From positions 1,058 through 65,057 of the forward strand of contig CAZSKU010000012.1 in the NCBI GenBank assembly GCA_964607515.1: a DNA stretch of 64,000 nucleotides, written 5' to 3'. The number at the start of each line of letters is the position of its first letter. The stretch's first letter is position 1. The stretch comes from an uncultured bacterium (lineage in GTDB: Bacteria; Fermentibacterota; Fermentibacteria; Fermentibacterales; JCC-6). Shown here piece by piece: positions 2,878 to 61,558 of this stretch. The translations under genes were made by a program, and so were the position numbers. Under the pieces are notes generated by a model. That model had not been told where the DNA came from and did not search any database. It worked only from the letters and a program-made list of their open reading frames with translations.

Positions 2878-3181
2878 GATGCGGGACGTGATGGCCCAGG
2901 CCCAGAAGATGCAGTCGGGGATGATGAAGGCCCAGGAGGAGCTTGCCGCAGCCACCGTGGAGGGCACTTCCGGGGGCGGGATGGTGACCGCCGTGGTGAG
3001 CGGCCAGGGGGAACTCAGGGGGGTGCGGATCTCCCCCGAGGCCGTGGACCCTTCGGACGTCGAGATGCTGGAGGATCTGATCCTCGCGGCGGTGAAGGAC
3101 GCGGTGGACAGAAGCCGGGAGCTGGCCCGGGAGAAGATGCGGGGTCTGGGGATGCCCCCGGGCCTGGGAGACCTTTTTTGA
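2867..3181 (+). CDS. ybaB: nucleoid-associated protein YbaB/EbfC
   Basis: A roughly 100-aa protein containing MAQAQKMQSGMMKAQEELAAATVEGTSGGGMVTAVVSGQGEL. It holds the conserved position between dnaX and recR. The start could be GTG 2867 or ATG 2879. Confidence 0.85.
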   Translation: MNRKMRDVMAQAQKMQSGMMKAQEELAAATVEGTSGGGMVTAVVSGQGELRGVRISPEAVDPSDVEMLEDLILAAVKDAVDRSRELAREKMRGLGMPPGLGDLF

Positions 3182-3765
3182 CCGGCTCTCCGGTTGACCG
3201 TCTGGCCGACGCTCTGGCGAAGCTCCCGGGCATCGGCAGGAAGACCGCCCTCAGGCTCGCCTTCTCCCTGGTGGACGACGGCAGGCTTTCCGAGGAACTG
3301 GCGGCGGTGCTGTCCGAGACCGCCAGAAACGTCCATGAGTGCCCTCTATGCAGAAACCTCACCCTGGATCCTGTCTGCGAGGTCTGCGGCAACGGGTCCA
3401 GGTCGAGATCCATATGCGTGGTCCACACTTCGGCGGACATGAGATCCATCGAGGACACGGGACTCTTCCGGGGGACCTACTTCGTGCTGCACGGAAGTCT
3501 CGCTCCCCTGGACGGAGTAGGCCCTGCAGAACTGGGAATCCCGGCGCTGCTGGAGAGGGTCGCCGGGGTGCAGGCCCAGGAGGTGATACTAGCCCTGGAC
3601 TCCACCACCGAGGGTGAGGCCACCTGCGCGTACATCGCCAGGGCCCTGGAAAGCCTCGGGGTGCCGGTGACCCGGCTGGCAAGGGGTCTTCCCCCGGGCG
3701 CCCTGGTGGAGTACGCCGACGCCCTGACTCTCAGCCAGGCGCTGAAGGGACGCAGCCGGGTCTGA
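3178..3765 (+). CDS. recR: recombination protein RecR
   Basis: LAKLPGIGRKTALRLAF helix-hairpin-helix, a C4 zinc finger (CPLCRNLTLDPVCEVCG) and a Toprim region. The TTG start overlaps the ybaB stop. Confidence 0.9.
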   Translation: MTGSPVDRLADALAKLPGIGRKTALRLAFSLVDDGRLSEELAAVLSETARNVHECPLCRNLTLDPVCEVCGNGSRSRSICVVHTSADMRSIEDTGLFRGTYFVLHGSLAPLDGVGPAELGIPALLERVAGVQAQEVILALDSTTEGEATCAYIARALESLGVPVTRLARGLPPGALVEYADALTLSQALKGRSRV

Positions 3766-5997: not shown

Positions 5998-6473
5998 GGC
6001 TCTTCGCGGCCCTTCTTCTTCCCCGGGACACCGTGGACATACTGGATCGGTGGTCCCGCGAGTGGCTCGAAGGGCGGCCAGGGGTGCGCCGGGTGTCCCG
6101 TGAGAACCTCCACCTGACCCTGAAGTTCTACGGGGAATACCCTCTCGAGAAAGCACGGCGGGAGATGGAACGGGCATGGTCGCTCCTGGGCGACGAACCC
6201 CTGCGTTTCGACCTGACCGAGACCGGATCCTTCGGCGGAAGGGTGCTCTGGGCCGGGGGCTTTTTCTCGTCCGGGGTCGGGCTTCTGGCTACGGCCCTGG
6301 GGGAGAGGAACCACAGGCCCCACGTTACCGTGGCCAGGATTTCCCGTGGAGAGCCGCCCCCTCCGCCTTCGCTCCCCTCCGGGCTTTCCGGCGGTTTTCA
6401 GGGAATGGCGCTGATGGAGAGCACTCTCGCTTCCGGGGGTTCTGTCTACCGACAGGCCACCCTCTGGAGTTGA
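5994..6473 (+). CDS. thpR: RNA 2',3'-cyclic phosphodiesterase (2H family, ThpR/LigT)
   Basis: Two H-x-T/S-x motifs (HLTLKF and HVTVAR) spaced as in the 2H phosphoesterase family. The TTG start overlaps the cinA stop. Confidence 0.7.
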
Positions 6474-6568
6474 GGGGTTGCCATGAGAACACATGTTCAC
6501 TATTCTACGGCGATGGCTGGAGCGGGGTCCCCTTTGCAGGGTCGCCTTGCGGGAAGAAAGGTGTAGCC

Positions 6569-7612
6569 ATGAGTAAACCGGAAGATTCGTCACAGGAGAG
6601 GGCGCGGGCGCTGGACGCCGCCTTCCAGCAGATTCAGAAGAAATTCGGCCAGGGCGCCATCATGCGGCTGGGAGACAACACCGCCATGAAAGTCGATGTG
6701 ATCCCCACCGGCAGCATCTCCCTTGACGCCGCGCTGGGCATCGGAGGGATTCCCCGGGGCAGGGCGATTGAGGTCTTCGGCGCCGAAAGCAGCGGCAAGA
6801 CCACCCTGGCCCTGCACATGCTCGCCCAGGCTCAGGGCGCCGGGGGGGAGGTGGCCTTCATAGACGCCGAGCACGCCCTGGACCCCGCCTACGCGGAGCG
6901 CCTCGGGCTCAACATCGACAACCTTCTGGTGGCCCAGCCGGAAACCGGTGAGCAGGCTCTGGAGATAACCGAAACCCTGGTGCGCTCCAATGCCATGGAC
7001 GCCATCGTCATAGATTCCGTGGCCGCCCTGGTTCCCAAGGCCGAGATCGAAGGGGAGATGGGCGACAGCCACGTCGGCCTTCAGGCCCGGCTGATGTCCC
7101 AGGCCCTGCGGAAGCTCACCGGAGCCGTGAGCAAGTCCCGCACCTCGGTCATCTTTATAAACCAGATCAGAATGAAGATCGGCGTGATGTTCGGCAATCC
7201 CGAGACCACCTCCGGAGGCAGGGCTCTGAAGTTCTACGCCAGCGTCCGGCTGGACGTCCGGCGGGTGGCCTCCATAAAGAACGGTGAAGATGTGGTAGGC
7301 AGCCGAACCCGGGTGAAGGTCGTGAAGAACAAGATGGCCCCGCCCTTCAAGGAGTGCGAATTCGACATCCTCCACGGCGAGGGGATATCCCGGGAGGGGG
7401 AACTCCTCGACCTGGGTCTTGAGAAGAAGGTCATCAACCGGCGGGGAACCTGGTACTCCCTGGGCGACCTTCAGCTTGGCCAGGGAAGGGATAATTCCCG
7501 GATTTTTCTGAAGGAGAACCCCGAGATCACCCTGAAACTCGAGACCGATCTCCGCACTCTTCTCGGGCTTCCCGCACAACCTGAAAAAGCCACGTCCCAG
7601 GCCGGGCAGTGA
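6569..7612 (+). CDS. recA: recombinase RecA
   Basis: Near-universal RecA sequence: [23 protein letters not shown]...[13 protein letters not shown]...[34 protein letters not shown]. Confidence 0.97.
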
Positions 7613-8208
7613 GCGCCGAGGAAGTCCTGTCCATGTCGGAGGTCCGGCGGGGCTGGGTGGCCGCGGTGCTCTCCGACGGGTCTGTGCTGATTACCTCGCA
7701 GGCCGCCGAAGCCATGGACCTAAGGCCCGGCTCTTCGGTGGACGGGGAGGTGGTGCGCCGGGAGGCCGCCCTGCTTCAGACCGCCGACGCCAGGAAGTAC
7801 GCCAACCGCTACCTGGCTCTGGCCGAGAGAAGCACCGGTCAGCTGGCGGGTAAGCTCCGGGAGCGGGGATACATGCCCGAGGTGGTAAGCGGCTGTCTGG
7901 AATGGGCCCGGGAGTACGGCCTGGTGGACGATCTCCGGTACGCCAGAGCCTTCGCCGCCGGGCGCACCCTGGGCAGGGCCGCGCTCAGGGCCAGGCTCAG
8001 GAAGAACGGTGTCCCGGAAGCGGTAGTGGCGGAGGTGACCGCGGGGGCATGCGACGCCGGGCAGACCGAGGCGCTGACGGACATCATCAGAAGGAAGTAC
8101 GGCTCCCTGAACGACAGGGAGAGGGCCATGAGAAGGGCCGCCGGCTGGCTCGCCCGGCGGGGCTACGCCCCCTCGATCATCGCCCGGGTGCTGGAGAAGG
8201 CCCTTTGA
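7609..8208 (+). CDS. recX: recombination regulator RecX
   Basis: Immediately follows recA, with its GTG overlapping the recA stop. Roughly 200-aa helical protein with a typical RecX repeat profile ([10 protein letters not shown]...[11 protein letters not shown]...). Confidence 0.8.
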
Positions 8209-28136: not shown

Positions 28137-29054
28137 ATGGCAAGAATACTGATCTGCGATCCGGTGTCCGAGGATGCCCTGGATGTGATCCGCAGGGCCG
28201 GGCACGAAGTAGTGGTAAAGACCGGAATGGACCAGGACACCCTCATCCAGACCGCCCCCGGATTCGACGCCATGGTGGTGAGAAGCGCCACCAAGGTCAG
28301 GGTCCCGGTTCTGGACGCCGCCAGGAATTCCCTGAAGCTGGTGGTCAGGGGGGGAGTGGGGGTCGACAGCATCGACGTGGACCATGCACAGACCCTCGGA
28401 ATCGCCGTGAAGAACACTCCGGCCGCCAGTTCGGTGGCAGTGGCTGAACTGGCCCTGGGCCACATGCTGGCCTGCTGCCGTGGAATTCCCGGAGCCGACA
28501 GGACCATGAAAGACGGCGTCTGGGACAAGAAATCCTTCAGCAAGGGGCTCGAACTCTACAATTCCACTCTCGGTCTGGTAGGATTCGGCAGAATCGCCAG
28601 GGAAGTCGCCAAGCGGGCCGACGCGTTCGGCATGAAGGTCATTTTCTACGATCCCTACGCCGGAGAATCTCCCTCCATCGCAGCACGCAAGGTAGACCTG
28701 GACACTCTCTGCCGGGAATCGGACTTCATCAGCCTGCACGTCCCCTACACCGGGGAAACCGCCCACATCCTCGACGCAGCCAGATTCGCCATGATGAAGA
28801 AGGGCGTTGTTATCGTGAACTGCGGCCGGGGCGGCACCATTGACGAGGTTGCCCTTCAGGCGGCCCTGGAGGAGGGAAGGGTTCATTCCGCGGCTCTGGA
28901 CGTTTTCGAGACCGAGCCGCTCACCGGTGCTGACAGCTCCCTGATCAAGAACCCCAGGGTGGTTGCCAGCCCCCACATGGGCGCCGGTACCCTGGGGGCG
29001 ACGGACAGGATCGGAGTCGAGGTTGCGGACATCATCGTGGACTATTTCAAGTAG
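28137..29054 (+). CDS. serA: D-isomer-specific 2-hydroxyacid dehydrogenase (short D-3-phosphoglycerate dehydrogenase-like)
   Basis: GLVGFGRIAREVAKRADAFGMKV NAD-binding motif. Catalytic R, E and H lie in ...VVIVNCGRGGTIDE...SPHMGAGT. Confidence 0.8.
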   Translation: MARILICDPVSEDALDVIRRAGHEVVVKTGMDQDTLIQTAPGFDAMVVRSATKVRVPVLDAARNSLKLVVRGGVGVDSIDVDHAQTLGIAVKNTPAASSVAVAELALGHMLACCRGIPGADRTMKDGVWDKKSFSKGLELYNSTLGLVGFGRIAREVAKRADAFGMKVIFYDPYAGESPSIAARKVDLDTLCRESDFISLHVPYTGETAHILDAARFAMMKKGVVIVNCGRGGTIDEVALQAALEEGRVHSAALDVFETEPLTGADSSLIKNPRVVASPHMGAGTLGATDRIGVEVADIIVDYFK

Positions 29055-29077
29055 GCAACACTGCGAAAGGCGGGCCG

Positions 29078-30364
29078 ATGACAAGGACAACGCCCCTGCT
29101 TCTCCTGTTCCTGGCCGCTCTTGCTGCGGCCCAGACCGGAGAGACCCAGCCACCCCCCGCGGACTCCGGGGTCGTCGAGTCGGCCGCGGAACCCTTACCG
29201 GCGGAACCCGAACCGGTTCCCGCGGCTGAGATCGCCCCCCCGGGGGGAATACTGGTGACGGACTACCCGGACGACGCCGGCGACAGGCTCATGGTCTGTT
29301 TCGAGCCGGGCGCCGAAGCCGGCGATCCCGACCTCTTTGCGGCGTACCAGGTTTTCAGGAGACCCCTCGGGGCGCCTGACTCGGCCTGGGCCATGGTTAA
29401 CATGATCCCGGTGGGCGAGGGAACCAGCTTCATAGACGGCTTCGACCCGGACTTCCCCGTGGAGGAGGGTGCGCAGTACGAGTACCGGGTTGACGCACTC
29501 TACCTGGATCAGACCGTGGTTGCGGGGGAGGCCATTGCCGCCCAGGAGGTCGCATCCGGCCAGTGGTTCCACACCGGCAAAGTCAGGGTGCTGGTCGCCT
29601 GCGCCATATTCCTCGGCCTCATCTTCTACTTCTTCTCCCGGGCCAAGACCGGCGCCAGCATGTACCTTCGGCCGATCGCCGGCATCGAGGCCATTGACGA
29701 GGCCATCGGGCGGGCCACGGAAATGGGCAAGCCCATTCTTTACGTCCCGGGGCTTTCCTACATCGAAGACGTGGCAACCATCGCCAGTCTGACCATCCTG
29801 GGAAGGGTGGCCAGGAAGGTGGCGGAGTACCAGACTCCCCTGTGCGTACCCAACACGGACCCCATAGTCTTCACCGTGGCGGAGGAGGCGGTGAAGCAGG
29901 CGTACCTGGAGGCCGGCCGCCCCGACTCCTACGACCCTGACAGCGTGTTCTTCCTGACCCAGAGCCAGTTCGCCTTCGTGGCGGGGGTGAACGGGATCAT
30001 GATGCGCCAGAAGCCCGCCACCAACTTCTACCTGGGCATGTTCTGGGCTGAGAGCCTGATTCTTGCCGAGACGGGGTCCCTCTCCGGGGCGATCCAGATA
30101 GCCGGCACCGACGCGGTCACCCAGCTTCCCTTCTTCATCACCACCTGCGACTACACCCTGATCGGCGAGGAACTCTACGCCGCCAGCGCCTACCTCAGCC
30201 GGGAGCCCATGCAGATGGGCTCCATCAAGGGACTGGACGCGTGCAAGGCGATACTGATGGTCTTCATCACACTGGGCATCATTCTCGCCCTTGTGGATGT
30301 GGCTGCGGAAACCCAAACCCTGGCGTGGCTCAAAGACCTGGTAACGTCTCAGGTGATGGACTAG
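29078..30364 (+). CDS. uncharacterised membrane protein A1: signal peptide, Ig-like extracytoplasmic domain, TM, conserved ~180-aa core, C-terminal TM
   Basis: MTRTTPLLLLFLAALAAAQT signal peptide. An extracytoplasmic domain contains DGFDPDFP...YEYRVD. TM helix VLVACAIFLGLIFYFF. Conserved core YLRPIAGIEAIDEAIGRATEMGKPILYVPG...FFITTCDYTLIGEELYAASAYL. No family recognised. First gene of the coupled operon. Confidence 0.6.
   Translation: MTRTTPLLLLFLAALAAAQTGETQPPPADSGVVESAAEPLPAEPEPVPAAEIAPPGGILVTDYPDDAGDRLMVCFEPGAEAGDPDLFAAYQVFRRPLGAPDSAWAMVNMIPVGEGTSFIDGFDPDFPVEEGAQYEYRVDALYLDQTVVAGEAIAAQEVASGQWFHTGKVRVLVACAIFLGLIFYFFSRAKTGASMYLRPIAGIEAIDEAIGRATEMGKPILYVPGLSYIEDVATIASLTILGRVARKVAEYQTPLCVPNTDPIVFTVAEEAVKQAYLEAGRPDSYDPDSVFFLTQSQFAFVAGVNGIMMRQKPATNFYLGMFWAESLILAETGSLSGAIQIAGTDAVTQLPFFITTCDYTLIGEELYAASAYLSREPMQMGSIKGLDACKAILMVFITLGIILALVDVAAETQTLAWLKDLVTSQVMD
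29668..30196 (+). repeat. near-identical duplicated segment, copy 1 (inside A1); perfect-identity core about 29768..30195
   Basis: By direct comparison it matches 39258..39784. About 428 bp are 100% identical, with few-mismatch flanks. The coding sequence on either side is divergent. Confidence 0.8.
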
Positions 30365-30386
30365 CCCACCGGAAGGAGCTTGAGCA

Positions 30387-31031
30387 GTGAAGAGAGCTGT
30401 TCCCCTCATGATAGTCCTGGTGGGCGGAGTACTGATGATTATCCAGTACTTCATTCCCCACCGGATATCCCAGGATATTTTCGACAACTACACCATCTGG
30501 ATCCCCATCATAGGAGCCTTCGCCCTGGTTCTGGGCGTTGGCAGCCTCACCAGGCTTCACGGCCACCGGGTGAGGAACCGGGCTCCCAACTGGCCCTACA
30601 GCCTGGCGGTGATCGTTCCGATCTACCTCATGCCCATATTCGCCCTGCTCCTTCCGACCTCGGTCGGAGGCGGCATGGAAGCCCCCAGCGTATTCAACTT
30701 CGCCTTCATGCACATACAGGTTCCCATCCAGTCCACCATGTTCAGCCTCTTGGCCTTCTACATCGCCAGCGCCGCTTTCCGGGCCTTCCGGGCCAAGAGC
30801 CTTCTAGCCACGGTGCTGCTGCTCACGGCGGTGATAGTGATGATGGGGCAGGTTCCCATCGGCGAGCTTCTGGGAAGCTGGTTCCCGAAGCTGGGCCTCT
30901 GGATAATCGACTTCCCCAACAACGCCGCCAAGAGGGCCATCGGTCTCGGGGTGGGATTCGGCATTCTGGCCACCCAGCTCAAGATCATTTTCGGCGTCGA
31001 GCGTAATTGGCTCGGCGGCGCCGGTGATTAG
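30387..31031 (+). CDS. uncharacterised polytopic membrane protein B (about 5-6 TM)
   Basis: The GTG start is preceded by GGAAGGAG. Multiple hydrophobic helices. No family recognised. Confidence 0.55.
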   Translation: MKRAVPLMIVLVGGVLMIIQYFIPHRISQDIFDNYTIWIPIIGAFALVLGVGSLTRLHGHRVRNRAPNWPYSLAVIVPIYLMPIFALLLPTSVGGGMEAPSVFNFAFMHIQVPIQSTMFSLLAFYIASAAFRAFRAKSLLATVLLLTAVIVMMGQVPIGELLGSWFPKLGLWIIDFPNNAAKRAIGLGVGFGILATQLKIIFGVERNWLGGAGD

Positions 31032-31042
31032 GGGGTGAAGAC

Positions 31043-32044
31043 ATGAAGGAAAACATCTGGAGCAGAATGCTCAACCTGGACAGGCGATGGATCTTCCTCT
31101 TCATAGGGGTCGTCTGCATCGTTCCGTTCTTCATTCCCTTCGGGCTGCCGCTGATACCCACCCAGCACGTCATTTCCATTTTCGACTACATCGAGGGGCT
31201 CGGCCCCGAGAACGCCATCTTCGTGAGTTTCGACTTCGACCCGGGCACGGACCCGGAGAACATGCCCATGGCGGTGGCCGTCACCAGGCACGCCTTCGCC
31301 AGGCATATCCCTGTGTTCTTCACCGCCAACGCCCCGCTGGCGCAGGGAATGCTGGAGTCGGGATTCGCCTACGTGACCAATCCTCACAGCGAAGACTACT
31401 TCCACGTGGTGACCTGGCCCGAGTGGGCCCCCTACCGGGAGATGGGCATCACCGAAAGGGACCAGCTGGAGGCCGCCTGGGAGGCTGACGGGAACGTGCT
31501 TCCTGCGAATGCCGCCGGATGGGTGTTCGAAGGACGTGATTTCGCCAAGCTGGGCTACCTCCCCTACTTCAGCCTCGTGATCCTGGGCATGACCTCCTCC
31601 ATCGCAGCCCAGTACCCGGAGGACATGAGCGGCAACCCCTTGGCGGAGATGCCCATGCTTCAGGAGCACAAGAGCCTCAGGGAAGTGGACCTTGCCACGA
31701 CCTTCGCCGGAAGCGCCGCCTGCATGTGGTGGGTCACCTACGCCCGTGAAAAGATCGGCCTTCCGGTGGCCTTCGGGGTCACTGCGGTCAGCGCCACCGA
31801 CTACACCATCTACATCCAGTCGGGCCAGCTGGTGGGCCAGATGGGCGGACTGCGGGGCGCCGCGGAGTACGAGGTTCTCCTGCAGCAGAAAGGCTACTTC
31901 GAGCAACCCGACAGAGCCTTCATCGGAATGGACGTCCAGAACGCGGCGCACCTGCTGATCTTCTTCTTCATCGTGCTTGGCAACATCGCCTACTTCGCCG
32001 GGGGTTTCCATAAAAAGGGCGCACTGCTGAAGGGAAGGAGGTAG
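31043..32044 (+). CDS. uncharacterised membrane-anchored protein C (N- and C-terminal TM helices flanking a soluble domain)
   Basis: RBS GGGGGTGAAG. N-terminal helix WIFLFIGVVCIVPFFIPFGLPLI and C-terminal helix LLIFFFIVLGNIAYFAGGF. Lies 11 bp after B. Confidence 0.55.
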   Translation: MKENIWSRMLNLDRRWIFLFIGVVCIVPFFIPFGLPLIPTQHVISIFDYIEGLGPENAIFVSFDFDPGTDPENMPMAVAVTRHAFARHIPVFFTANAPLAQGMLESGFAYVTNPHSEDYFHVVTWPEWAPYREMGITERDQLEAAWEADGNVLPANAAGWVFEGRDFAKLGYLPYFSLVILGMTSSIAAQYPEDMSGNPLAEMPMLQEHKSLREVDLATTFAGSAACMWWVTYAREKIGLPVAFGVTAVSATDYTIYIQSGQLVGQMGGLRGAAEYEVLLQQKGYFEQPDRAFIGMDVQNAAHLLIFFFIVLGNIAYFAGGFHKKGALLKGRR

Positions 32045-32047
32045 ACC

Positions 32048-32677
32048 GTGTACGAAACCATCGGAATCTGGGTAGCGGCCATCTTCACCCTGGCCATGTA
32101 CTCCTTCCTTTACAAGGAGAACCCCCTGTACCGCCTCGGTGAGCATCTGGTAGTCGGCATATCAACAGGGTACTTCATCGTTCTCACCTACACCCAGGTG
32201 TTGAAACCCAGGCTCATAGACGCCATCGCCCTGGAGAACCAGTGGATCCTGGTGATTCCGGCCCTGCTGGGTCTTCTGTACGTCACCCGGTTTTTCCCCA
32301 AGATCGCCTGGCTCTCCCGGTACCCCATGGCCTTCATCATGGGCACAAGCATGGGCGTGGGCTTCCCGCTGTCCATGAAGGCCAGCGTCCTGAGGCAGCT
32401 GGAAGCCACGATTCTGCCGTTGTACCAGGCGGGGATGCCCTGGCAGATCCTGGCGGGCAACATCATCCTGGTGTTCGGAACCCTGGCGGCTCTGATCTAC
32501 TTCTTCTTCAGCAAGCCCCACAGGGGTCTTTTCTTCGGAACCGGGTCCAAGATCGGGATCTGGGTCATCATGATCGGATTCGGAGCCACCTTCGGCTTCA
32601 CCGTCATGGGCCGGATCAGCCTGTTGATCGGAAGGGTGCAGTTCCTTCTGAAGGACTGGCTGGGTGTGATCAACTGA
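32048..32677 (+). CDS. uncharacterised polytopic membrane protein D (about 5-6 TM)
   Basis: The GTG start is 3 nt after the stop of C. Similar size and topology to B. Confidence 0.55.
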   Translation: MYETIGIWVAAIFTLAMYSFLYKENPLYRLGEHLVVGISTGYFIVLTYTQVLKPRLIDAIALENQWILVIPALLGLLYVTRFFPKIAWLSRYPMAFIMGTSMGVGFPLSMKASVLRQLEATILPLYQAGMPWQILAGNIILVFGTLAALIYFFFSKPHRGLFFGTGSKIGIWVIMIGFGATFGFTVMGRISLLIGRVQFLLKDWLGVIN

Positions 32678-32750
32678 CGGGAACGCCCCCGGTCCTTCCC
32701 GGGCCGGGGGCGCCCATCCTTCCAGAGTGTTCCGGGAGAGGGAGGCTGGC

Positions 32751-35498
32751 ATGAACGGCCTGATCCTGGTAACGGACATCGGAAGCACCACCACAAAGGC
32801 TCTTCTGCTGGATACCGCCGGGGGAATACTCACCCCGGTGGAGAGTTGCGAGGAGCCCACCACCGTGGAAAAACCCCACGAAGACGTGGCCGTCGGTCTG
32901 TTCCGGGCGGTGGACGGCTTGTCCCGCCTGTCCGGAGTGCAGCTGAGGGATGGCGGCCGGTTCCTGGTGCCGTTTTACGCCACCAGTTCAGCGGGAGGCG
33001 GTCTGCAGATACTGGTGATCGCCCTGGCATCCCGTGACACCGGAACAGTGGCAAGGGCGGTGACCTGCGGGGCCGGAGGGGTGGTGCTGGACGCTTTCAA
33101 CATCGACGATGATACCCCAAGAGTGGAGAAGATTCAGAGGATGGCGGGCCTCTCCCCCGACCTGGTGGTGCTGGCGGGAGGGTACGAGGACGGGGCCCTG
33201 GCCGCGGTGGTGAACATGGCCCAGTTGCTTGCCCAGGCAAGCCCCAAACCGAAATACCGGGCAGGAACCCTTCCGGTGGTGTTCTGCGGAAACTCGAAGG
33301 CGGGGGAGTTCGTCAGGGAAGCCCTCGGGGCTGGTTTCAGGCTTTACTGCACGGAGAACATCAGGCCCTCGGGGCTGGAACTCAATCTCAGACCCGCCGT
33401 ACAGATGGTCCAAAGACTCTTCATGGACCACGTGATGCAGATGGCGCCGGGCTACAGTTCCATAGCCGGAGCCGTGTCGGCTCCGATTGTCCCCACACCC
33501 TCGGGCGTGGAACGGATACTTTCCCTGTGGTGCCGGGAGACCGGCAAGTGTGCTCTGCTTGCGGATATGGGCGGGGCCACCACGGACGTGTTCACCGCGG
33601 TCGCCGGGGGGGTCGCGCGAACCGTGAGCGCCAACATCGGGATGAGTTACAGCCTGTCAAACATCCTCAGGGAGGCCGGTCTTCCGGGGATCATGAGGCA
33701 CCTGCCCGGGGTGGATCCTTCACCGGTGCGGGACCGGATACTGGAGAAGACCCTGTTTCCAACCCGGCCCCCCGGCGACGACTTCGGGCTTCGGGTGGAA
33801 CACTCCTGCGCCGCGGAAGGCATGGCCCTGGCCTGCCGGCAGCACCTGGAGTTCTCCTACCGACGGGCCAGGGTGGGTTTTCTCGATCGGCTCAAGCTTC
33901 TTGGAAGGTGCAAGTTCGATCAGAGGTTCAGAACCCTGGACGAGAAGGAAGGCTTCAGCCTGAGCGACTTCGGAACCCTGATCGGAGCCGGCGGCGTCCT
34001 GGCCCACGCCCCAGGGCGTAGGGCCGCCTGGATACTCGCCCAGGGATTCTTTCCCCGGGGAGTCACCACCCTGATGGTGGACAGCCCTTTTCACAGCCCC
34101 CACATGGGTGTGCTCAGCAGCTCCTTTCCCGAGATGGCCCTGGGCTACTACCGCAGCCACTGCCTGAAATCGGTCTGCCGGGTGGTCACCCCGACAGGCT
34201 CCCTCCGGCCTGGCAGGCCGGGGATCGGAGTAAGGGGCCCCCACGTCGAGACGATGGTCCTGGGCGGCGACTTCCTGTACCTGGAGGACGGGAAGGGAAC
34301 GTCCGCCGGAAACTGGCGGGAGACCGAGAGCATTCCGATGCTGGTTGACTGCAGGACGAACCCCGATCAGACACTTCCCGTGGATTTCGACAAGAGGCCG
34401 GCGGAGGTGCTCCCGGTGCCCGCCGCCCGTGAACGACAGGCGAGGTTCTCCGAGCCGGGAGAAATCCTGCACACCTTCTCCCTGCCCTATCCGGGAGAGA
34501 TACTGGTGGGCGCCGGAGATACCGTGGAGCCCGGAACCCTCCTGGGAAGGAACCCTCTCAGCCCTCCAATGGTCTACTTCCTGGACGTCAGGACATCGGG
34601 GGGCTATGACGACGCCACTCCCACCGGGGAAATCCTGGACGGGGTGCTGGTGGCTCCGGGAGACGTTGTGAACCCGGGAAAGCAGGTGTTCCGCAGGATT
34701 GTCAGGCACGGCCTCACCCGGGAGGTACACGAGTTGAAAAGCCCCGTCCGGGGCTTGGTGACCGGTATCGTCCCCCCCGGGCTTGTCTGCCTCAGGGAGA
34801 TACAGGACTACGACGGCAAGCCCCACGTGGTGGATGTGGCGGGACCCCTGGGGATAAAGCCAGGGCACATCCACAGATTCCTGAAGGTGAAGAAGGGCGA
34901 TTTCGTGCTTCAGGGGCAGGCTCTGGCGGCGGGGGAAAGGTTTCCGATGGTAAAGAGCCCGTCCGCTGGCACCATCACAGAGGTGGACAGGGAGTCGGGC
35001 ACCGTGACCGTGCACTACAGAACGGTTCCCGTGGACATGCGATCGCCCATCCACGGGGTTGTGTCGGGGGTTGTTCCGGAGCACTCCGTGACCCTGTCCT
35101 TCCGGGGAACAGTGATGGAGGGGGTGCTGGGGCTGGGAAGGGACACCTACGGCGTCTTCTCCACGGAGCCGGCCCCTGGAGCCCTGGTTCTCAGGATGGG
35201 AACGATGACTCCGGAGGATCTGAGGCGGGCCGTGGACTGCGGCGCGGCGGCGGTGGTATCTGCGGGGATTTCAGGGGAACTGGTGTCCGGCTACCTGGGG
35301 GAGGATCCCGGGGTGATACTCACCGGGGGCGAGGACCTCCCTGTATCCCTGATGGCCGTGTGCGGCGCGGGCTTGAGAAGGTTTTCCGGGGATATATGGA
35401 GGACTCTGGAGGGGCTGCCCGGCCGCCGGGGCGCTCTGTTCACAACCACCAGGATAAGGGCCGGGGTGGAGAGACCCAGGCTTTTCATGGAGGAATGA
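32751..35498 (+). CDS. large ASKHA-superfamily ATPase (GlmL/MutL/EutA-like N-terminal half) fused to a ~450-aa C-terminal region with repeated barrel-sandwich-hybrid-like hairpins
   Basis: The ATG is preceded by GGGAGG. LVTDIGSTTTKALLLD (phosphate-1) and LLADMGGATTDVFTAV (phosphate-2) are typical of GlmL-type actin-fold ATPases. The C-terminus has repeated GDxVxPGxxL-type motifs (GDTVEPGTLLG, GDVVNPGKQVF, KKGDFVLQGQAL). Confidence 0.65.
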   Translation: MNGLILVTDIGSTTTKALLLDTAGGILTPVESCEEPTTVEKPHEDVAVGLFRAVDGLSRLSGVQLRDGGRFLVPFYATSSAGGGLQILVIALASRDTGTVARAVTCGAGGVVLDAFNIDDDTPRVEKIQRMAGLSPDLVVLAGGYEDGALAAVVNMAQLLAQASPKPKYRAGTLPVVFCGNSKAGEFVREALGAGFRLYCTENIRPSGLELNLRPAVQMVQRLFMDHVMQMAPGYSSIAGAVSAPIVPTPSGVERILSLWCRETGKCALLADMGGATTDVFTAVAGGVARTVSANIGMSYSLSNILREAGLPGIMRHLPGVDPSPVRDRILEKTLFPTRPPGDDFGLRVEHSCAAEGMALACRQHLEFSYRRARVGFLDRLKLLGRCKFDQRFRTLDEKEGFSLSDFGTLIGAGGVLAHAPGRRAAWILAQGFFPRGVTTLMVDSPFHSPHMGVLSSSFPEMALGYYRSHCLKSVCRVVTPTGSLRPGRPGIGVRGPHVETMVLGGDFLYLEDGKGTSAGNWRETESIPMLVDCRTNPDQTLPVDFDKRPAEVLPVPAARERQARFSEPGEILHTFSLPYPGEILVGAGDTVEPGTLLGRNPLSPPMVYFLDVRTSGGYDDATPTGEILDGVLVAPGDVVNPGKQVFRRIVRHGLTREVHELKSPVRGLVTGIVPPGLVCLREIQDYDGKPHVVDVAGPLGIKPGHIHRFLKVKKGDFVLQGQALAAGERFPMVKSPSAGTITEVDRESGTVTVHYRTVPVDMRSPIHGVVSGVVPEHSVTLSFRGTVMEGVLGLGRDTYGVFSTEPAPGALVLRMGTMTPEDLRRAVDCGAAAVVSAGISGELVSGYLGEDPGVILTGGEDLPVSLMAVCGAGLRRFSGDIWRTLEGLPGRRGALFTTTRIRAGVERPRLFMEE

Positions 35499-35815
35499 TG
35501 AATCCAGAGGAGCTGATGGGTTGTTTTCCCGGAGTAGTCCTGGACTCCGGAAACCATGTTCTTTTCCGTGGATTGCGGATAGGCTCGCTGGAAACATCCG
35601 GCGGAACAGTTATCTTCAGGCTTCTGGTCCACCGGCTGGATTACGGGCCGCTGCTTTCGGAGTACCCCTTCCTGATTCCGTCCACTGAAGGCTTTGTAGA
35701 AGTGCTGCTGGGGGATACGCCCGGTGAGGAGGTTGTGTCGGCCCTGCTGGAGTGCATCAGGAGCTCCGTGGACCGTGCCGCCGAAACATCGGGAGAGAGT
35801 ATAATTGCGCAGTGA
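35495..35815 (+). CDS. small hypothetical protein (possibly roadblock/LC7-like), translationally coupled to the ATPase
   Basis: ATGA overlap with the upstream stop. 106 aa. The roadblock-like assignment is tentative. Confidence 0.4.
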
Positions 35816-35841
35816 AACCCGAAACCGCAGGGAGGTTTGAC

Positions 35842-35994
35842 ATGTGGGTTTGCCAGGCGTGCGGGTGGGTCTACGATCCCGCTCAGGGTGACCCGGACGG
35901 AGGAATCGCTCCGGGGACGGCGTTCGAGGATATCCCCGACGACTGGGTGTGCCCGGTCTGCGGCGTTGGCAAGGACATGTTCGAGAAGGAATGA
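35842..35994 (+). CDS. rubredoxin
   Basis: [12 protein letters not shown]...[16 protein letters not shown]: two CxxCG knuckles. RBS GGAGG. 50 aa. Confidence 0.85.
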
Positions 35995-36260
35995 GGATTC
36001 CAGTGAAAGAAACCATCGTTGCCATACTGGTATCCCACAGGAACCAGGCCGCTGTCAATGTTCAGAAGGTGCTGACCGGCTGGGGCTGCATGATCAAGAC
36101 AAGGCTCGGGATACACGAGGGCACCATGGAGGACTGCTCCGAGAGGGGGCTCATCATCCTGAGCCTGACAGGAGAGGAAGAGAAGAAAGAGGAACTGGTC
36201 AGGAAGCTCAACGCCCTGAGCGACGTAACCGCCAAGAGGGTGGACCTGGCGCTTGACTGA
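35991..36260 (+). CDS. small ACT-like protein (TM1266/TIGR03959-like)
   Basis: ATGA overlap with rubredoxin. [34 protein letters not shown]...[27 protein letters not shown] resembles TM1266-type ACT-fold proteins. Confidence 0.4.
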
Positions 36261-37035
36261 CCGGCTCGCCGGCGTTCTCGAGGATGTCTATTCCCGATGG
36301 AATCGCCGGGAGTTCGTGCATCCCGATCCTCTGGAGTTCCTCTACCCCTACGATGACCTCCCCGACCGGGAGATTGCCGGACTGGTGGCCTCGGGGCTGG
36401 CCTACGGCAGGGTGGCACAGATCCTCGGAAGCGTTGGCGCGGTGCTGGAAGCCCTGGGGACATCGCCTTCCTCTCTGCCCGAGAACCGGCTGGAAGGAAT
36501 ACTCGCCGGATTCAGACACCGGTTCACCCCGGACTCGGACCTGGTCCGGGCGATCCGCGGCGCCCTTCGCATTCAGAGGGAACACGGATCCCTCGGCGGA
36601 TTCGTCGCCCGGGCGGCCACGGAAGGCGGAATTCTGGAAGCCCAGCGGAGGCTCGTCGCCGGGATTCTCGGCGACGGGCCGCCCTCGAGCCTCCTCTCCT
36701 GCCCCACCCGGGGAAGCTGCTGCAAAAGGCTGAACCTCTGGTTCAGATGGATGGTCAGAAGTGATTCGGTGGATCCCGGGGGATGGGCAGGCATCCAGGC
36801 TTCCGAGCTGCTTGTTCCCCTGGACACCCACATGTGGAAGATCGGCAGAAGGCTGGGCTTCACCGGCCGGAACAGCCCGGACCTGAGGGCGGCCATGGAA
36901 ATCACCCGGGGTTTCGGAAGGGTGAATCCGGGAGATCCGGTGAAGTACGATTTCGCCCTGACAAGGTTCGGAATCAGGTCCGATCTCACCCTGGAATCGC
37001 TGTTCTCGGAGCTTGACCCGCCGGAAGGGTTATAG
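36253..37035 (+). CDS. TIGR02757/DUF2400-family protein (HhH-GPD-like)
   Basis: TTG start with an 8-nt overlap onto the upstream gene. Profile LEFLYPYDDLPDREIAGLVASGLAYGRVAQI...LVPLDTHMWKIGRRLG. Confidence 0.55.
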   Translation: MTDRLAGVLEDVYSRWNRREFVHPDPLEFLYPYDDLPDREIAGLVASGLAYGRVAQILGSVGAVLEALGTSPSSLPENRLEGILAGFRHRFTPDSDLVRAIRGALRIQREHGSLGGFVARAATEGGILEAQRRLVAGILGDGPPSSLLSCPTRGSCCKRLNLWFRWMVRSDSVDPGGWAGIQASELLVPLDTHMWKIGRRLGFTGRNSPDLRAAMEITRGFGRVNPGDPVKYDFALTRFGIRSDLTLESLFSELDPPEGL

Positions 37036-37053
37036 TAAATTCGCACCTCGTGT

Positions 37054-37129
<76 letters not shown>

Positions 37130-37142
37130 ACCCCCTTTCACC

Positions 37143-37532
37143 ATGAAGTACGATCCCAACGCCGTCACGATTCAGCCCATGGGCGCCGGAGGCCCCGGAG
37201 GCCAGCACCAGAACCGCAGCTTCACCGGGGTCACCCTGATTTTCAGCATATCCGACAGCGGGCTCCCCGAGGAAGTGGCCCAGCGGCTTCGGGAAGCCGC
37301 AGGATCCCGGCTGAACCAGCGTGACGAGATAATCATCCAGGCCAGGGAACACAGGAGTTTCGAACAGAATCTCAGGGCCGCCAGGAAAAGGCTGGAGAGG
37401 CTTCTGGACCGGGCAGGCCGGGCTCCGGCGGTCAGGATTCCCACCAGCCCGTCCAAGGCGTCACGGGAAAGAAGACTGCAGGAAAAGCGCCTTCGCGGGG
37501 AAATCAAGAAAAGGCGAACCGAAGATTTCTAG
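37143..37532 (+). CDS. arfB: alternative ribosome-rescue factor ArfB (peptidyl-tRNA hydrolase, RF1-type GGQ domain)
   Basis: GPGGQHQNRSFTGVTL GGQ motif, plus a basic C-terminal tail (KRLQEKRLRGEIKKRR). Confidence 0.8.
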   Translation: MKYDPNAVTIQPMGAGGPGGQHQNRSFTGVTLIFSISDSGLPEEVAQRLREAAGSRLNQRDEIIIQAREHRSFEQNLRAARKRLERLLDRAGRAPAVRIPTSPSKASRERRLQEKRLRGEIKKRRTEDF

Positions 37533-38710
37533 GGTTCTATGACAAGGTAAGGGGCGTCTTCCTGGAGCTGCACGACCCTCCCTATGACCGCTGAGGCGGT
37601 ATCCCCCCCCTGGTGAAGACGGTCCAGGGCCTCGCCGGCCTGATCGGGGCGTACGGCAGCCAGAAGACCCCCGGAAGTCTGTGCGTCGAACAGGAGTTTG
37701 ACCAGGTCCGGATCCAGACCCTCGGTCATGGAGACGTTTTCCCCCACGTACTTCCTGTTGTTGCCCGAGCCGCCGGGGAAGAAGTCCCTGGCGAACTTCC
37801 TTCCCCCCGGGAACAGCGGGACGCTGTCGGCGTTGAAGGAAAACCCCACCCCTCCGCTTCGTGCCATTATCAGGGCGTGCCCCAGCAGCCCGAATCCCGT
37901 GATGTCTGTCATGGCGCTGACATCCAGCTCCCTGAGAATCCGGGAAGCGTAAAGGTTCAGCCTCTCCATGGAAGCCACAACCGGACGGAACAGAGAATGG
38001 GGAAGGGCGGAAGCCTTGTTGGCGGTGGTCAGCACACCGGAGCCGAGAGGCTTGGTGATTACCAGAAGGTCTCCCGGACGGGCCATGGAATTCCGAAGGG
38101 CCTTTCCCGGATCTATCACCCCGGTGACGCTGAGGCCGAATACCACCTGATCCTGTTCCATGGTGTGTCCGCCCACCAGGACGACTCCAGCCTCAACCAT
38201 CTTCTCGCAGGCGCCGGACAGGATCTGCTCCACGATATCGGAATCCAGAACATTGCCCGGAAAACACAGGAGGTTCATGGCTGTCAGGGCGTCGCCGCCC
38301 ATGGCCCAGACGTCGGACATGCTGTTGGCGGCGGCGATCCTGCCGAACTCGAGCGGGCTCGGAACTATCGGCTGGAAGAAGTCCACGGTCTGCACCAGTG
38401 CCTTGTCCGGCGTCAGCAGATAGACCCCTGCGTCATCCATGGACTCCATGCCCACGATGAGATTCTGCGACCGGATCCTTGGGAGCCTCTCAAGAATCCC
38501 CGACAACCTGCCGGGGGACATCTTGCCGGCTCAACCGGCGCATGCGGCGTAGTCCATCAGATTGATGGAAGGCTTCGCCATCGCCCCAGCCTTTCCCAGA
38601 ACATCCTTCTCGCAGTACACCTGTTCCCCCAGGAGTTCATGGAACTTCCTGCATGCGACGCAGTCGCCGTGGCGTTCGCACTCCATGGGACAGGGGCAGT
38701 TGATGTTCAT
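37529..38710 (-). CDS. selD: selenide, water dikinase SelD with in-frame UGA (Sec) codon and a Cys-rich N-terminal extension
   Basis: ORF 37529..38521 carries SelD motifs (LVGMESMDDAGVY...GGHTMEQ...MTDITGFGLLGH). In-frame upstream the reading continues MAKPSINLMDYAACAG-TGA(38531..38533)-AGKMSPGRL, so the TGA sits at the position of the catalytic Cys/Sec. The frame stays open to the ATG at 38710 (MNINCPCPMECERHGDCVAC...), preceded by AAAGGGGA. Translation from 38581 is an alternative start. Confidence 0.75.
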
Positions 38711-38737
38711 TCATCCCCTTTCAATCGGGATTACTGT

Positions 38738-38766
38738 ATTATACCAGGCCTGGTGTGCTTCTCCAA
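38738..38766 (-). promoter_or_regulatory. candidate sigma70 promoter for selD (-35 TTGGAG, 17-nt spacer, -10 TATAAT)
   Basis: Read on the minus strand: TTGGAGaagcacaccaggcctggTATAAT. It lies about 25 nt upstream of the 38710 ATG. Confidence 0.4.
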
Positions 38767-38796
38767 TTCCGGGGACGGTCGCGAAAGGGCGGTCAC

Positions 38797-39951
38797 ATGG
38801 TTCACCTGCTCATGCCGGGGGTACTCTGCCTGATGGTTCCGGAAATAGCGTCGGTAACCGATGTTCCCAACGACGCCGGCGAATTGCTGATGGTGGAGGT
38901 GTCGTTTCCCTCAGGGGTCGAGGAGGTCGGCGGTTTCCTCCTCTGGCGCACACCCGCCGACCTGGACGCCTGGGAGCTGGTGATGGTGGAGGCTCTCCCG
39001 CTGGAGTCCAACCTGCTGATGGACGGTTTCGATCCGGACTATCCCCTGGTTCCCGGAACCCGGTACCTGTACCGTCCCGGATTGATCACCCTTCAGGGGG
39101 ACACCCTCCCCGGCCCGGTCTTCACTGGCGCCGAAGCTCCCTCGGGGTCATGGTTCAACACCGGCGAGACGCCCACCCTGGCGGCCTGCCTGATTTTCAT
39201 GGCGCTGATCTTCTACTACTTCCAGAGAGCCCTCAAGGGCGCGGAGTTCTACCTCCGGCCGATCGCCGGCATCGAGGCCATTGACGAAGCCATCGGACGG
39301 GCCACGGAAATGGGCAAGCCCATTCTTTACGTCCCGGGGCTTTCCACCATAGACGACGTGGCAACCATCGCCAGTCTGACCATCCTGGGAAGGGTGGCCA
39401 GGAAGGTGGCGGAGTACCAGACTCCCCTGTGCGTACCCAACACGGACCCCATAGTCTTCACCGTGGCGGAGGAGGCGGTGAAGCAGGCGTACCTGGAGGC
39501 CGGCCGCCCCGACTCCTACGACCCTGACAGCGTGTTCTTCCTGACCCAGAGCCAGTTCGCCTTCGTGGCGGGGGTGAACGGGATCATGATGCGCCAGAAG
39601 CCCGCCACCAACTTCTACCTGGGCATGTTCTGGGCTGAGAGCCTGATTCTTGCCGAGACGGGGTCCCTCTCCGGGGCGATCCAGATAGCCGGCACCGACG
39701 CGGTCACCCAGCTTCCCTTCTTCATCACCACCTGCGACTACACCCTGATCGGCGAGGAACTCTACGCCGCCAGCGCCTACCTGGGGCGGGAGCCCAGGCA
39801 GATGGGGGGTATAAAAAGCCTTGACGCATGCAAGGTCATCATCATGACCCTTATAGTTTTGGGAGTAATCGCATTCCTGGCGGATTTCCTGGCCGGAACG
39901 GATTTCCTTCCGCGGATCAGGGGCTGGATCACCACCCCCGAGGGCTTCTGA
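38797..39951 (+). CDS. uncharacterised membrane protein A2, orphan paralog of A1
   Basis: Same architecture as A1: N-terminal hydrophobic leader, Ig-like domain with DGFDPDYP, a TM helix, a core essentially identical to A1, and a divergent C-terminal TM tail. RBS GCGAAAGGGCGG resembles the A1 RBS GCGAAAGGCGGG. Confidence 0.6.
   Translation: MVHLLMPGVLCLMVPEIASVTDVPNDAGELLMVEVSFPSGVEEVGGFLLWRTPADLDAWELVMVEALPLESNLLMDGFDPDYPLVPGTRYLYRPGLITLQGDTLPGPVFTGAEAPSGSWFNTGETPTLAACLIFMALIFYYFQRALKGAEFYLRPIAGIEAIDEAIGRATEMGKPILYVPGLSTIDDVATIASLTILGRVARKVAEYQTPLCVPNTDPIVFTVAEEAVKQAYLEAGRPDSYDPDSVFFLTQSQFAFVAGVNGIMMRQKPATNFYLGMFWAESLILAETGSLSGAIQIAGTDAVTQLPFFITTCDYTLIGEELYAASAYLGREPRQMGGIKSLDACKVIIMTLIVLGVIAFLADFLAGTDFLPRIRGWITTPEGF
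39258..39784 (+). repeat. near-identical duplicated segment, copy 2 (inside A2)
   Basis: See copy 1 at 29668..30196. Confidence 0.8.
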
Positions 39952-61015: not shown

Positions 61016-61111
61016 ACCGGCTGCGACTCATCGTGCCTGCGATTGCCCGGGGCGCGCCTCTTTAGCCCAGTATCGGCGCCTGTTGGGGTCTCAACCGCTG
61101 CAACCTCGACT

Positions 61112-61139
61112 TTGCTTTTCCGGAGGCCATTGGTTATAA
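61112..61139 (+). promoter_or_regulatory. candidate sigma70 promoter (-35 TTGCTT, 16-nt spacer, -10 TTATAA) for the YEYQAD-repeat gene
   Basis: Sequence motif only. Confidence 0.3.
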
Positions 61140-61195
61140 GGGGATTCCATAAGCAGTACTCCGGAGTCGTAGGAAGGCCTGCATTGGTAAAAGCA

Positions 61196-61558
61196 ATGAA
61201 AAACAACAGATTACGTAAGTTAGTTGACTTTGTTTACTCCGTCCCCCTGCTGTTCTTAGCGGGGCTGGCCCAGGCCGGAAACGTCTTCGTCACCGAATAC
61301 GAGTATCAGGCGGATCTGACGGTGCTGCCCGTGGAGTACGAGTATCAGGCCGACCTCAACGTTCTGGTGGTGGACTACGAGTACCAGGCCGACGGCGAGG
61401 ACGGGCTCTGGTACTACTGCGACTACGAGTACCAGGCCGATGTCCTGGTGTACTTCTGCGAGTACGAGTACCAGGCGGATCTGAAGGTACTGTTCGTGGA
61501 ATACGAGTACCAGGCGGGCTGGAACTGCGGCCATCCCTGGCAGGAAAGGCTCCACTGA
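61196..61558 (+). CDS. secreted tandem-repeat protein (six YEYQAD-containing repeats)
   Basis: Signal peptide MKNNRLRKLVDFVYSVPLLFLAGLAQA. Six 13-14-aa repeats of the form (V/T)EYEYQAD(L)xVLxV. The ORF-track start at 61043 is unlikely because it carries no signal peptide. Confidence 0.6.
   Translation: MKNNRLRKLVDFVYSVPLLFLAGLAQAGNVFVTEYEYQADLTVLPVEYEYQADLNVLVVDYEYQADGEDGLWYYCDYEYQADVLVYFCEYEYQADLKVLFVEYEYQAGWNCGHPWQERLH
61293..61520 (+). repeat. in-frame tandem DNA repeats (~39-42 bp units, GAATACGAGTA(T/C)CAGGC(G/C)GA...)
   Basis: Direct reading shows six imperfect units, all coding. Confidence 0.7.

Follow-up and report, generated by a model that had tools for sequence, protein, structure and literature searches.

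An identical 428-bp core in two otherwise diverged DUF6754 paralogs of an uncultured Fermentibacterota bacterium points to recurrent gene conversion

Two paralogous genes of the protein family DUF6754, here called A1 and A2, lie 9.6 kb apart in the genome of an uncultured bacterium of the phylum Fermentibacterota (lineage JCC-6). We analysed a 64,000-nt stretch of contig CAZSKU010000012.1 (assembly GCA_964607515.1), hereafter the window. Coordinates are positions in it unless another contig is named, W denotes its genome, and A1 and A2 without further label are the two W genes. The genes share a core that is identical over 428 bp, down to the last synonymous site, between N-terminal ectodomains and C-terminal tails that have diverged widely. 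We consider it likely that A1 and A2 are ancient paralogs whose cores are repeatedly homogenised by RecA-type recombination, in both directions, in W and in a sister species (locus L002).

Two diverged genes share an identical core

The identical block occupies columns 201-628 of an alignment of 29568-30296 with 39158-39884, contains no indels, and keeps a constant offset of 9587 (Table 1). It spans the central third to 40% of the gene, both copies are in frame within A1 and A2, and the divergence at synonymous sites (dS) between them is 0 over 103 such sites. Directly upstream lies a near-identical edge tract, in which A1 departs from A2 at 29668, 29701 and 29710 and in a cluster of four mismatches at 29759/29760/29764/29767. 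Downstream, the first mismatch comes immediately at 30196. The edge tract is probably an older or shorter conversion tract. Outside block and edge, nucleotide identity drops to ~40-65%, and at the protein level the two ectodomains are 32% and the two tails 45% identical. A reading made from the sequence alone, before this work, had described a perfectly identical core with a few mismatches at its edges, set between flanks of 30-40% amino-acid identity. The core is borne out as an exact 428 bp in the assembled sequence, with its few mismatches in the upstream edge, and the estimate for the flanks came close.

This identity is more than chance. Codon-column shuffles of the W pair reached a run of 428 in 0 of 10,000 trials, and unconverted paralog pairs of relatives are 81-85% identical in the block region, with longest exact runs of 19-32 nt. 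A repeat search of the window returned no third copy of the block.

Table 1. Coordinates of the features discussed in the text (TM, transmembrane; ORF, open reading frame; GC3, G+C content at third codon positions)
Feature	Position	Strand	Basis or remark
A1, DUF6754 gene, 428 aa	29078..30364	+	ORF and GC3; PF20539 E=1.6e-116; first gene of the four-gene module
A2, DUF6754 gene, 384 aa	38797..39951	+	PF20539 E=1.5e-114; solo, without partner genes downstream
Identical block, A1 copy	29768..30195	+	A1 residues 231-373
Identical block, A2 copy	39355..39782	+	A2 residues 187-329
Near-identical edge tract of A1 (~104 bp)	29664..29767	+	directly upstream of the block
Near-identical edge tract of A2	39251..39354	+	alignment
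36-bp patch inside the block	29836..29871	+	comparison with L160:849-2135 and L161:332-1618
u214, polytopic membrane protein, module partner 1	30387..31031	+	TM scan; no Pfam, NCBIfam or PADLOC match
u333, N- and C-terminal TM segments, module partner 2	31043..32044	+	TM scan; without family assignment
u209, polytopic membrane protein, module partner 3	32048..32677	+	TM scan; without family assignment
GlmL/MutL-like protein, 923 aa (actin-like ATPase fold)	32727..35498	+	PF13941; adjoins the module
RecA	6176..7612	+	Pfam PF00154 E=1.7e-136
RecX	7609-8208		Pfam scan
RecR	3178-3765		Pfam scan

The core groups by genome and the flanks by paralog

W was compared with syntenic loci of relatives, among them L002 and L003 (contigs of 361 kb and 259 kb from the Joint Genome Institute, JGI), L005 and L012, in a codon alignment that covers 20 genes of 10 genomes and, for five genomes, in distance matrices of the ectodomain, the first TM segment (TM1) and the tail. 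All of the compared sequences are metagenome assemblies, most or all of them apparently short-read. In the ectodomain, TM1 and the tail, every A1 is nearer to the A1 of other genomes than to the A2 of its own, the same holds for A2 with A2, and dS between the paralogs is saturated in these flanks (1.2 to above 2). Because the flanks group by paralog type, the duplication must be old and must long predate these genomes.

Within the block this grouping flips. A1 equals A2 in W and again in L002, with 0 differences in each, and in L002 the identity covers exactly the same 428 bp at the same position in the gene. Between the two genomes the block differs by 8.4% (dS 0.44, from 34 synonymous and 2 non-synonymous differences), which matches the divergence of their flanks and is thus at the level of orthologues. 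For the most robust sub-segment, 26 of 324 positions separate W from L002 and 0 of 324 separate the copies within either genome. The edge tract shows dS between paralogs of 0.165 in W and 0.57 in L002, against 1.2-2.6 in unconverted genomes. A search of JGI metagenome contigs for closer relatives of W found none above 81% identity.

Inside the tract, then, the two copies within a genome resemble each other more than either resembles its orthologue in another genome; outside it the pattern is the opposite, as expected of a duplication before speciation. The homogenisation extends to synonymous sites, in a segment free of nucleotide-level constraint, and there are donor-type footprints of the kind left by non-reciprocal transfer, namely a mosaic of signature sites and a patch in which A1 agrees with A2 of W at 11 of 11 sites (both below). 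As far as sequence comparison can tell, this is the pattern by which concerted evolution through gene conversion is classically recognised. A comparison of orthologous loci had been proposed as a check in the sequence-only reading, which took the identical block as a sign of recent conversion between the paralogs. The mosaic that it looked for is present, flanks grouping by paralog and core by genome, and its explanation is not only supported but extended, to recurrent events in both directions in at least two lineages.

A block could also be kept identical by selection on the nucleotide sequence itself, through an embedded RNA, a binding site or codon-level constraint, rather than by recombination. 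No other part of the protein is as conserved as the block, and the GC3 of the block, 91%, exceeds the 73-83% of the flanks. Yet in L003 and L005 the paralogs have reached a saturated dS of ~1.5 in the block, with a non-synonymous divergence (dN) of 0.05-0.07; it follows that the protein is strongly constrained and the DNA is not, which excludes selection at the nucleotide level. The dS of 0.44 between W and L002 tells against it as well, and an Rfam search of the block and both genes gave no match at or above a gathering score. We consider this explanation hardly credible. A nucleotide-level functional element in the block was rejected as a candidate on the same grounds, synonymous sites being free in L003 and L005 and no match in or near the block attaining the gathering score of an Rfam family.

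Mosaic donor states indicate more than one event

Signature sites are those that separate A1-type from A2-type sequences in unconverted genomes. At these sites the block of both W and L002 is a mosaic, columns 260 and 290 of the alignment being A2-type and columns 291, 309, 315 and 342 A1-type. At columns 300-301 both W copies are A1-type and both L002 copies are A2-type, and these opposite states imply separate events, in opposite directions, after W and L002 had split.

Shorter traces occur in other Fermentibacterota lineages. An 81-nt exact run joins the two copies of L010 (at 4963 and 10361; shuffle P=0.004) and a 62-nt run those of L019 (at 10337 and 17325), and identity at third codon positions is 73% in L019 and 64% in L012 (copies at 749 and 10346) over a baseline of 42-55%. 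In these genomes the same core holds conversion tracts that are partial or in decay. Judged from the available loci, the pattern is segmental and sporadic, clear in two lineages and partial in three.

One may ask whether a single recent, long conversion in each lineage, with no ongoing homogenisation, could account for the same data. Orthologue-level distance between the genomes would also result if each lineage had undergone one event with the same donor, and a long exact block is found in only 2 of the ~20 Fermentibacterota lineages that have both copies. Such one-off events sit poorly with a mosaic of A1- and A2-type states that is common to both genomes and has one site pair resolved oppositely, with an edge decay that is intermediate and unequal (dS 0.165 in W and 0.57 in L002), with the strain-level differences in tract content described below, and with zero differences within each lineage despite 26-36 fixed between them. 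We regard them as unlikely, and prefer recurrent conversion.

Strain contigs and the question of assembly

Six contigs of the W lineage could be compared, four in A1 context (W, L001, L160 and L161) and two in A2 context, among them L004. L160, which was assembled with SPAdes from another sample and is 10.6 kb long, matches window positions 28230-38878 at 99.83% identity, with 16 mismatches and 2 single-base gaps. Eleven of its base differences fall in a 36-bp patch of the block (29836-29871), and at 11 of these 11 sites A1 of W equals A2 of W. The patch of A1 in W is thus the A2 sequence, PLCVPNTDPIVF, and in L160 and L161 it is A1-type, SLIVPNRDPIVY, with 11 nucleotide differences, in an A1 context that is otherwise 99.5-99.8% identical to W. 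The Logan contig L161 combines the A1-type patch with an A2-type boundary cluster, and L001, also from Logan, has A2-type bases at 29701 and 29710. If the single-nucleotide polymorphisms (SNPs) of the edge, the cluster and the patch are scored in this order as 1 (A1-type) or 2 (A2-type), W reads 1/1/2, L001 2/1/2, L160 1/1/1 and L161 1/2/1.

These mosaics either reflect short conversion tracts that segregate among strains of 99.5% identity or more, or result from bubble removal by the assembler. Likewise, either the latest A2-to-A1 conversion left the 36-bp patch as its footprint or the assembler collapsed a bubble there, and the literally perfect 428 bp may reflect a very recent conversion or a collapse that joined 68, 36 and 324 bp. 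The identity of the segments on the two sides of the patch is robust under conversion and bubble collapse alike. Positions 29768-29835 (68 bp) and 29872-30195 (324 bp) are invariant in all six contigs, except for a private SNP of L004 at 39777, and a hidden difference between A1 and A2 in these segments would have been missed with a chance of ~3% per site.

On the hypothesis of a partial collapse, A1 of W truly carries the A1-type patch, which was replaced by the A2 allele in bulge removal, while conversion still underlies the flanking segments. The A1-type patch of L160 and L161, in A1 contexts 99.5-99.8% identical to W, is what such a collapse would have overwritten. The graph structure also fits: with k=55, only the patch forms a true bubble, bordered by identical stretches of 68 bp on the left and 324 bp on the right, and the SNPs of the cluster and the edge stay tied to the left flank, which is diverged. 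This matches the W pattern exactly. In the Logan assemblies (k=31) all three marker groups are bubbles, and L001 and L161 alternate mosaically, as a random choice of bubbles predicts. On the other side, two recorded contigs carry the A1 protein of the L002 lineage, which has the A2-type patch (P0242), the three A1-context assemblies W, L001 and L002 all have the A2 allele, and the A1 allele is present in no A2-context contig. The standard metaSPAdes workflow of the JGI has a largest k of 127. At that length the patch and the boundary cluster, separated by only 69-112 nt, would be linked, so that there would be no bubble to collapse, provided that this workflow was the one used for the sample. 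We take a collapse limited to the patch seriously, while thinking that the patch more probably is what it appears to be.

A wholesale chimera is a different matter. The sequence-only reading had offered, as its alternative to conversion, an assembly chimera from a collapsed repeat. In its wholesale form, both genes would be threaded through the core of one copy and the other core left as an orphan contig. The window is evidently a metagenome-assembled contig, and one contig, L085 (described below), does switch from A2 to A1 context inside the shared tract. A chimera of this kind would, however, need each of several independent assemblies to have switched twice at exact k-mers. A1 with its flanks is reproduced by the independent contigs L001, L160 and L161, and A2 with its flanks by L004; on the 68-bp and 324-bp segments the six contigs of the lineage are in agreement, whether the context is A1 or A2. 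The gene order is intact, being the same in the window as in L002, L003, L005 and L012, and the donor-state mosaic is common to W and L002. Unconverted relatives share exact runs of only 19-32 nt and their copies stayed apart in assembly; more widely, assemblers separated the paralogs of other genomes, whose exact runs reach at most 19-81 nt. We consider a wholesale chimera very improbable, and what survives of that alternative is the possible collapse of 36 bp at 29836-29871.

Several observations nonetheless weigh against recurrent conversion and should be kept together. The evidence for it comes from metagenome assemblies, which were apparently built mostly or entirely from short reads. The four contigs with A1 context give four marker combinations, which random bubble removal between near-identical repeats would give too, and the 1/1/2 pattern of W is what a k=55 assembly collapsing only the patch is expected to produce. 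The evidence from L002 represents one population (two assemblies), and two similarly collapsed assemblies would also show identical tract ends. Finally, L085 shows that mis-joins or real crossovers happen at this repeat.

L085 is a 3.8-kb contig (1-3757) from activated sludge, with a coverage of 2.4, and belongs to a third lineage of the clade, ~9% from W and L002. It carries, in order, selD on the minus strand, an A2-type N-terminal half, an A1-type core and tail, u214 and u333. The switch falls in the edge tract, near L085 position 1932, which corresponds to window positions 29663/39250. The contig is either the product of a reciprocal crossover (the junction of a tandem duplication, or an excised 9.6-kb circle) or an assembler mis-join. 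In a screen for hybrid genes it was the sole clear case among 96 typed genes, L096 and L113 being too weak to call.

The DUF6754 proteins and their four-gene module

A1 and A2 belong to PF20539 (DUF6754), with 388 and 382 bits over nearly the whole 257-position profile, far above its gathering score of 27 bits. From the N terminus, a TM scan and the sequence resolve A1 into a signal peptide, a Pro/Glu/Ala-rich linker, an ectodomain resembling fibronectin type III (FN3), TM1 (169-187), a Rossmann-like core, TM2 (391-409) and a short tail; A2 has a short signal peptide, an FN3-like ectodomain, TM1, core, TM2 and tail. The exact A1 protein recurs in L001. The longest A2 ORF starts at a GTG at 38755, and we adopted the ATG at 38797 as its start because the database protein P0001 has 384 aa. 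The closest homologues are named from Candidatus Fermentibacterota (Aegiribacteria, Sabulitectum, Fermentibacteraceae).

The ectodomain is predicted to have the FN3 beta-sandwich fold. AlphaFold2 models A2 residues 16-105 with a predicted local distance difference test score (pLDDT) of 80-90, and Foldseek matches them to FN3 structures, including titin, with probability 1.0 and a target TM-score (template modelling score) of up to ~0.7. Some database homologues carry the name "fibronectin type III domain-containing protein"; the Pfam scan of A1 and A2 gave no fn3 sequence match. AlphaFold2 was least confident in part of the most conserved stretch (39355-39782, A2 residues 187-329), where pLDDT was ~35 in a first model, and a second model gave 39-50 for core residues 160-220. 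This stretch may need partner proteins or the membrane in order to fold. Searches of sequence libraries gave no NCBIfam, PADLOC or PDB-sequence match from which a function could be read, and a literature search found no paper that mentions DUF6754.

A1 opens a module that spans 29078-32677 and continues with u214, u333 and u209. We surveyed 161 loci with 163 assessable DUF6754 genes, and all three partners follow downstream in 134 of the 163. The module, found also in loci L025-L084, is present in one to three tandem copies in Fermentibacterota, Zixibacteria, Ignavibacteria, Cloacimonadota, WOR-3 and others, with two or three complete modules in tandem in Zixibacteria, Ignavibacteria and others. 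Solo DUF6754 copies (n=28) were found only in Fermentibacterota-type loci and in two Cloacimonadota loci, and A2 is solo in every Fermentibacterota locus that holds both genes. No relatedness among the four module proteins was detectable by hhalign (probability ≤2.6%). We also considered a second paralogous pair downstream, u214 and u203, and rejected it, as the two show no similarity.

In 30 of the 61 loci that are 18 kb or longer, other phyla included, a homologue of the GlmL/MutL-like protein lies no more than 10 kb from the module, which suggests a functional connection between the two. The GlmL/MutL-like region is at the N terminus of this protein, and its C-terminal part has weak, sub-threshold matches to barrel-sandwich-hybrid families (RnfC_N, NQRA_N). 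A PADLOC search for anti-phage defence matched none of A1, u214, u333, u209, the GlmL-like protein and u203.

Discussion

The mechanism that we propose starts from the protein. Very strong purifying selection on the core would keep the DNA of A1 and A2 similar enough for homologous recombination, which can act there precisely because protein conservation retains this similarity. Core sequence would then be copied non-reciprocally from one gene into the other, in both directions, so that synonymous differences are erased and the cores evolve in concert. Tracts would stop where homology collapses, and ectodomains and tails would keep diverging independently. The enzymatic route may be RecA/RecFOR-type repair of breaks or gaps, and presumably the RecA, RecX and RecR encoded in the window carry it out.

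What sets the boundaries could be heteroduplex rejection, selection on paralog-specific residues, or both. At the left end of the block, A1 encodes S-Y-I-E-D (TAC ATC GAA) where A2 encodes S-T-I-D-D (ACC ATA GAC); at the right end, L-S-R (CTC AGC) in A1 stands opposite L-G-R (CTG GGG) in A2, and beyond it lie TM2 and the tail, which have diverged. These boundary mismatches are inherited, so W and L002 should have the same tract ends under rejection and selection alike.

The composition of the block may be mentioned here. Its GC3 is 91% in W and 86% in L002, that of the flanks is 73-87%, and unconverted relatives of similar base composition have 74-84% in the corresponding block. This is at most a suggestive hint of GC-biased conversion.

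The tufA and tufB genes of Salmonella and other bacteria evolve in concert by gene conversion, which was reportedly found to be RecA-dependent by Abdulkarim and Hughes in 1996. Like tufA and tufB, A1 and A2 are two dispersed paralogs of one chromosome that would be kept identical at synonymous sites by non-reciprocal recombination, in tracts of a few hundred nucleotides that abort where homology ends and with exchange both ways. Unlike the tuf genes, which are homogenised along the whole gene and encode functionally equivalent proteins, they are homogenised only in their central third to 40%, and the N-terminal ectodomain and C-terminal tail remain old, diverged and paralog-specific. The two systems also differ in geometry, A1 and A2 being direct repeats 9.6 kb apart and the tuf genes inverted repeats hundreds of kb apart. 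The average walk of tuf conversion is ~500 nt, with abortion at the ends of homology, and the tract length of W falls in the range measured there (Paulsson et al., 2017; PMC5485169).

Long-lasting, recurrent concerted evolution has been described for 26 genes in prokaryotes, most of which encode members of the same complexes or pathways (Wang and Chen, 2018; PMC6053082). The likeness to A1 and A2 lies in paralogs that are closer within a genome than orthologues are between genomes, recurrently across lineages, and the difference in that the pattern of A1 and A2 is segmental and sporadic and concerns an uncharacterised gene family. By analogy, the shared-complex theme of those genes would fit a DUF6754 core that has to work with the module partners. 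The homogenisation of rRNA operons is a further parallel, in that intragenomic conversion keeps repeats identical; unlike A1 and A2, these operons are non-coding, multi-copy and homogenised along their whole length.

In Neisseria pilE/pilS and Borrelia vlsE, the variable surface part of a protein is replaced from silent, promoterless cassettes, which creates diversity. A1 and A2 resemble these systems in that conversion would take place between a surface-protein gene and a homologous copy, with conserved segments guiding recombination. Unlike them, A1 and A2 would exchange a conserved cytoplasmic core, by which diversity is erased; both are complete genes, and their ectodomains are not exchanged. 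The sequence-only reading had gone on to suggest a modular system with a swappable ectodomain. This is not supported: ectodomains and tails descend vertically with their own orthologues, and it is the conserved core that moves. No silent cassettes lie nearby, and the 49 larger ORFs scanned in the window include no recombinase or reverse transcriptase. We therefore rejected ectodomain swapping or a cassette-type system (pilE/pilS-like, shufflon or diversity-generating retroelement), there being only two copies, both full-length.

More plausible than swapping is that A1 and A2 serve as alternative FN3-bearing subunits on the same partners. With one shared partner set (u214/u333/u209), homogenisation of the core would be harmless or even advantageous. 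The amino-acid identity of paralog cores is 50-67% when both copies come with partners of their own and 77-88% when one of them is solo, as in Fermentibacterota and some Cloacimonadota, a contrast that different duplication ages could also explain. A stronger proposal is that homogenisation is selected, two FN3 "heads" docking via their common core onto a single shared u214/u333/u209 set. We advance it as a tentative idea that may well turn out to be wrong. If true, it would describe a one-engine, two-receptors design stabilised by concerted evolution, in which conversion keeps both cores in step with the partners, in an uncharacterised four-gene machine that is widespread in phyla of the FCB (Fibrobacteres, Chlorobi and Bacteroidetes) group.

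Gene conversion itself is well known, and DUF6754 is a new gene family for it. As the mechanism is textbook, the finding adds a case and not a principle. The case would be a clean, natural one of segmental concerted evolution from an uncultured phylum, in which the core converts, with the same tract ends in two species, and the surface parts diverge. It also carries a caution for metagenomics: near-identical internal repeats give mosaic or hybrid contigs, such as L085, L001 and L161, and can distort paralog phylogenies and estimates of dN/dS. Finally, it draws attention to a conserved and unstudied membrane module, made of DUF6754 and three unannotated membrane proteins and often found beside a GlmL/MutL-like ATPase.

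Other features of the window

The window has a G+C content of 63% and encodes rpsB, tsf, uppS, dxr, rseP, a BamA-like protein, RecA, RecX, RecR and UvrD; it is an ordinary housekeeping region of the chromosome. A Pfam scan of its 49 larger ORFs, with some smaller ORFs falling outside the scan, found no mobile-element gene, recombinase or reverse transcriptase. The longest RecA ORF has 478 aa and its RecA domain begins at residue 144, so that either the start is over-extended or the protein has an N-terminal extension.

A tRNA-Phe(GAA) gene at 37054-37129 overlaps the start of the longest ArfB-like ORF (37095-37532), whose orthologue in L002 is called at 129 aa; given this overlap, the true arfB start should lie further downstream. 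A small ORF at 61043-61558 contains 5-6 copies of a 13-16-aa unit with the motif (D/E)YEYQAD, which appear in the DNA as repeats with a period of 39/48 nt at 61295-61515. A bacterial small signal recognition particle RNA is found at 1308-1406 (Rfam RF00169, 76.8 bits).

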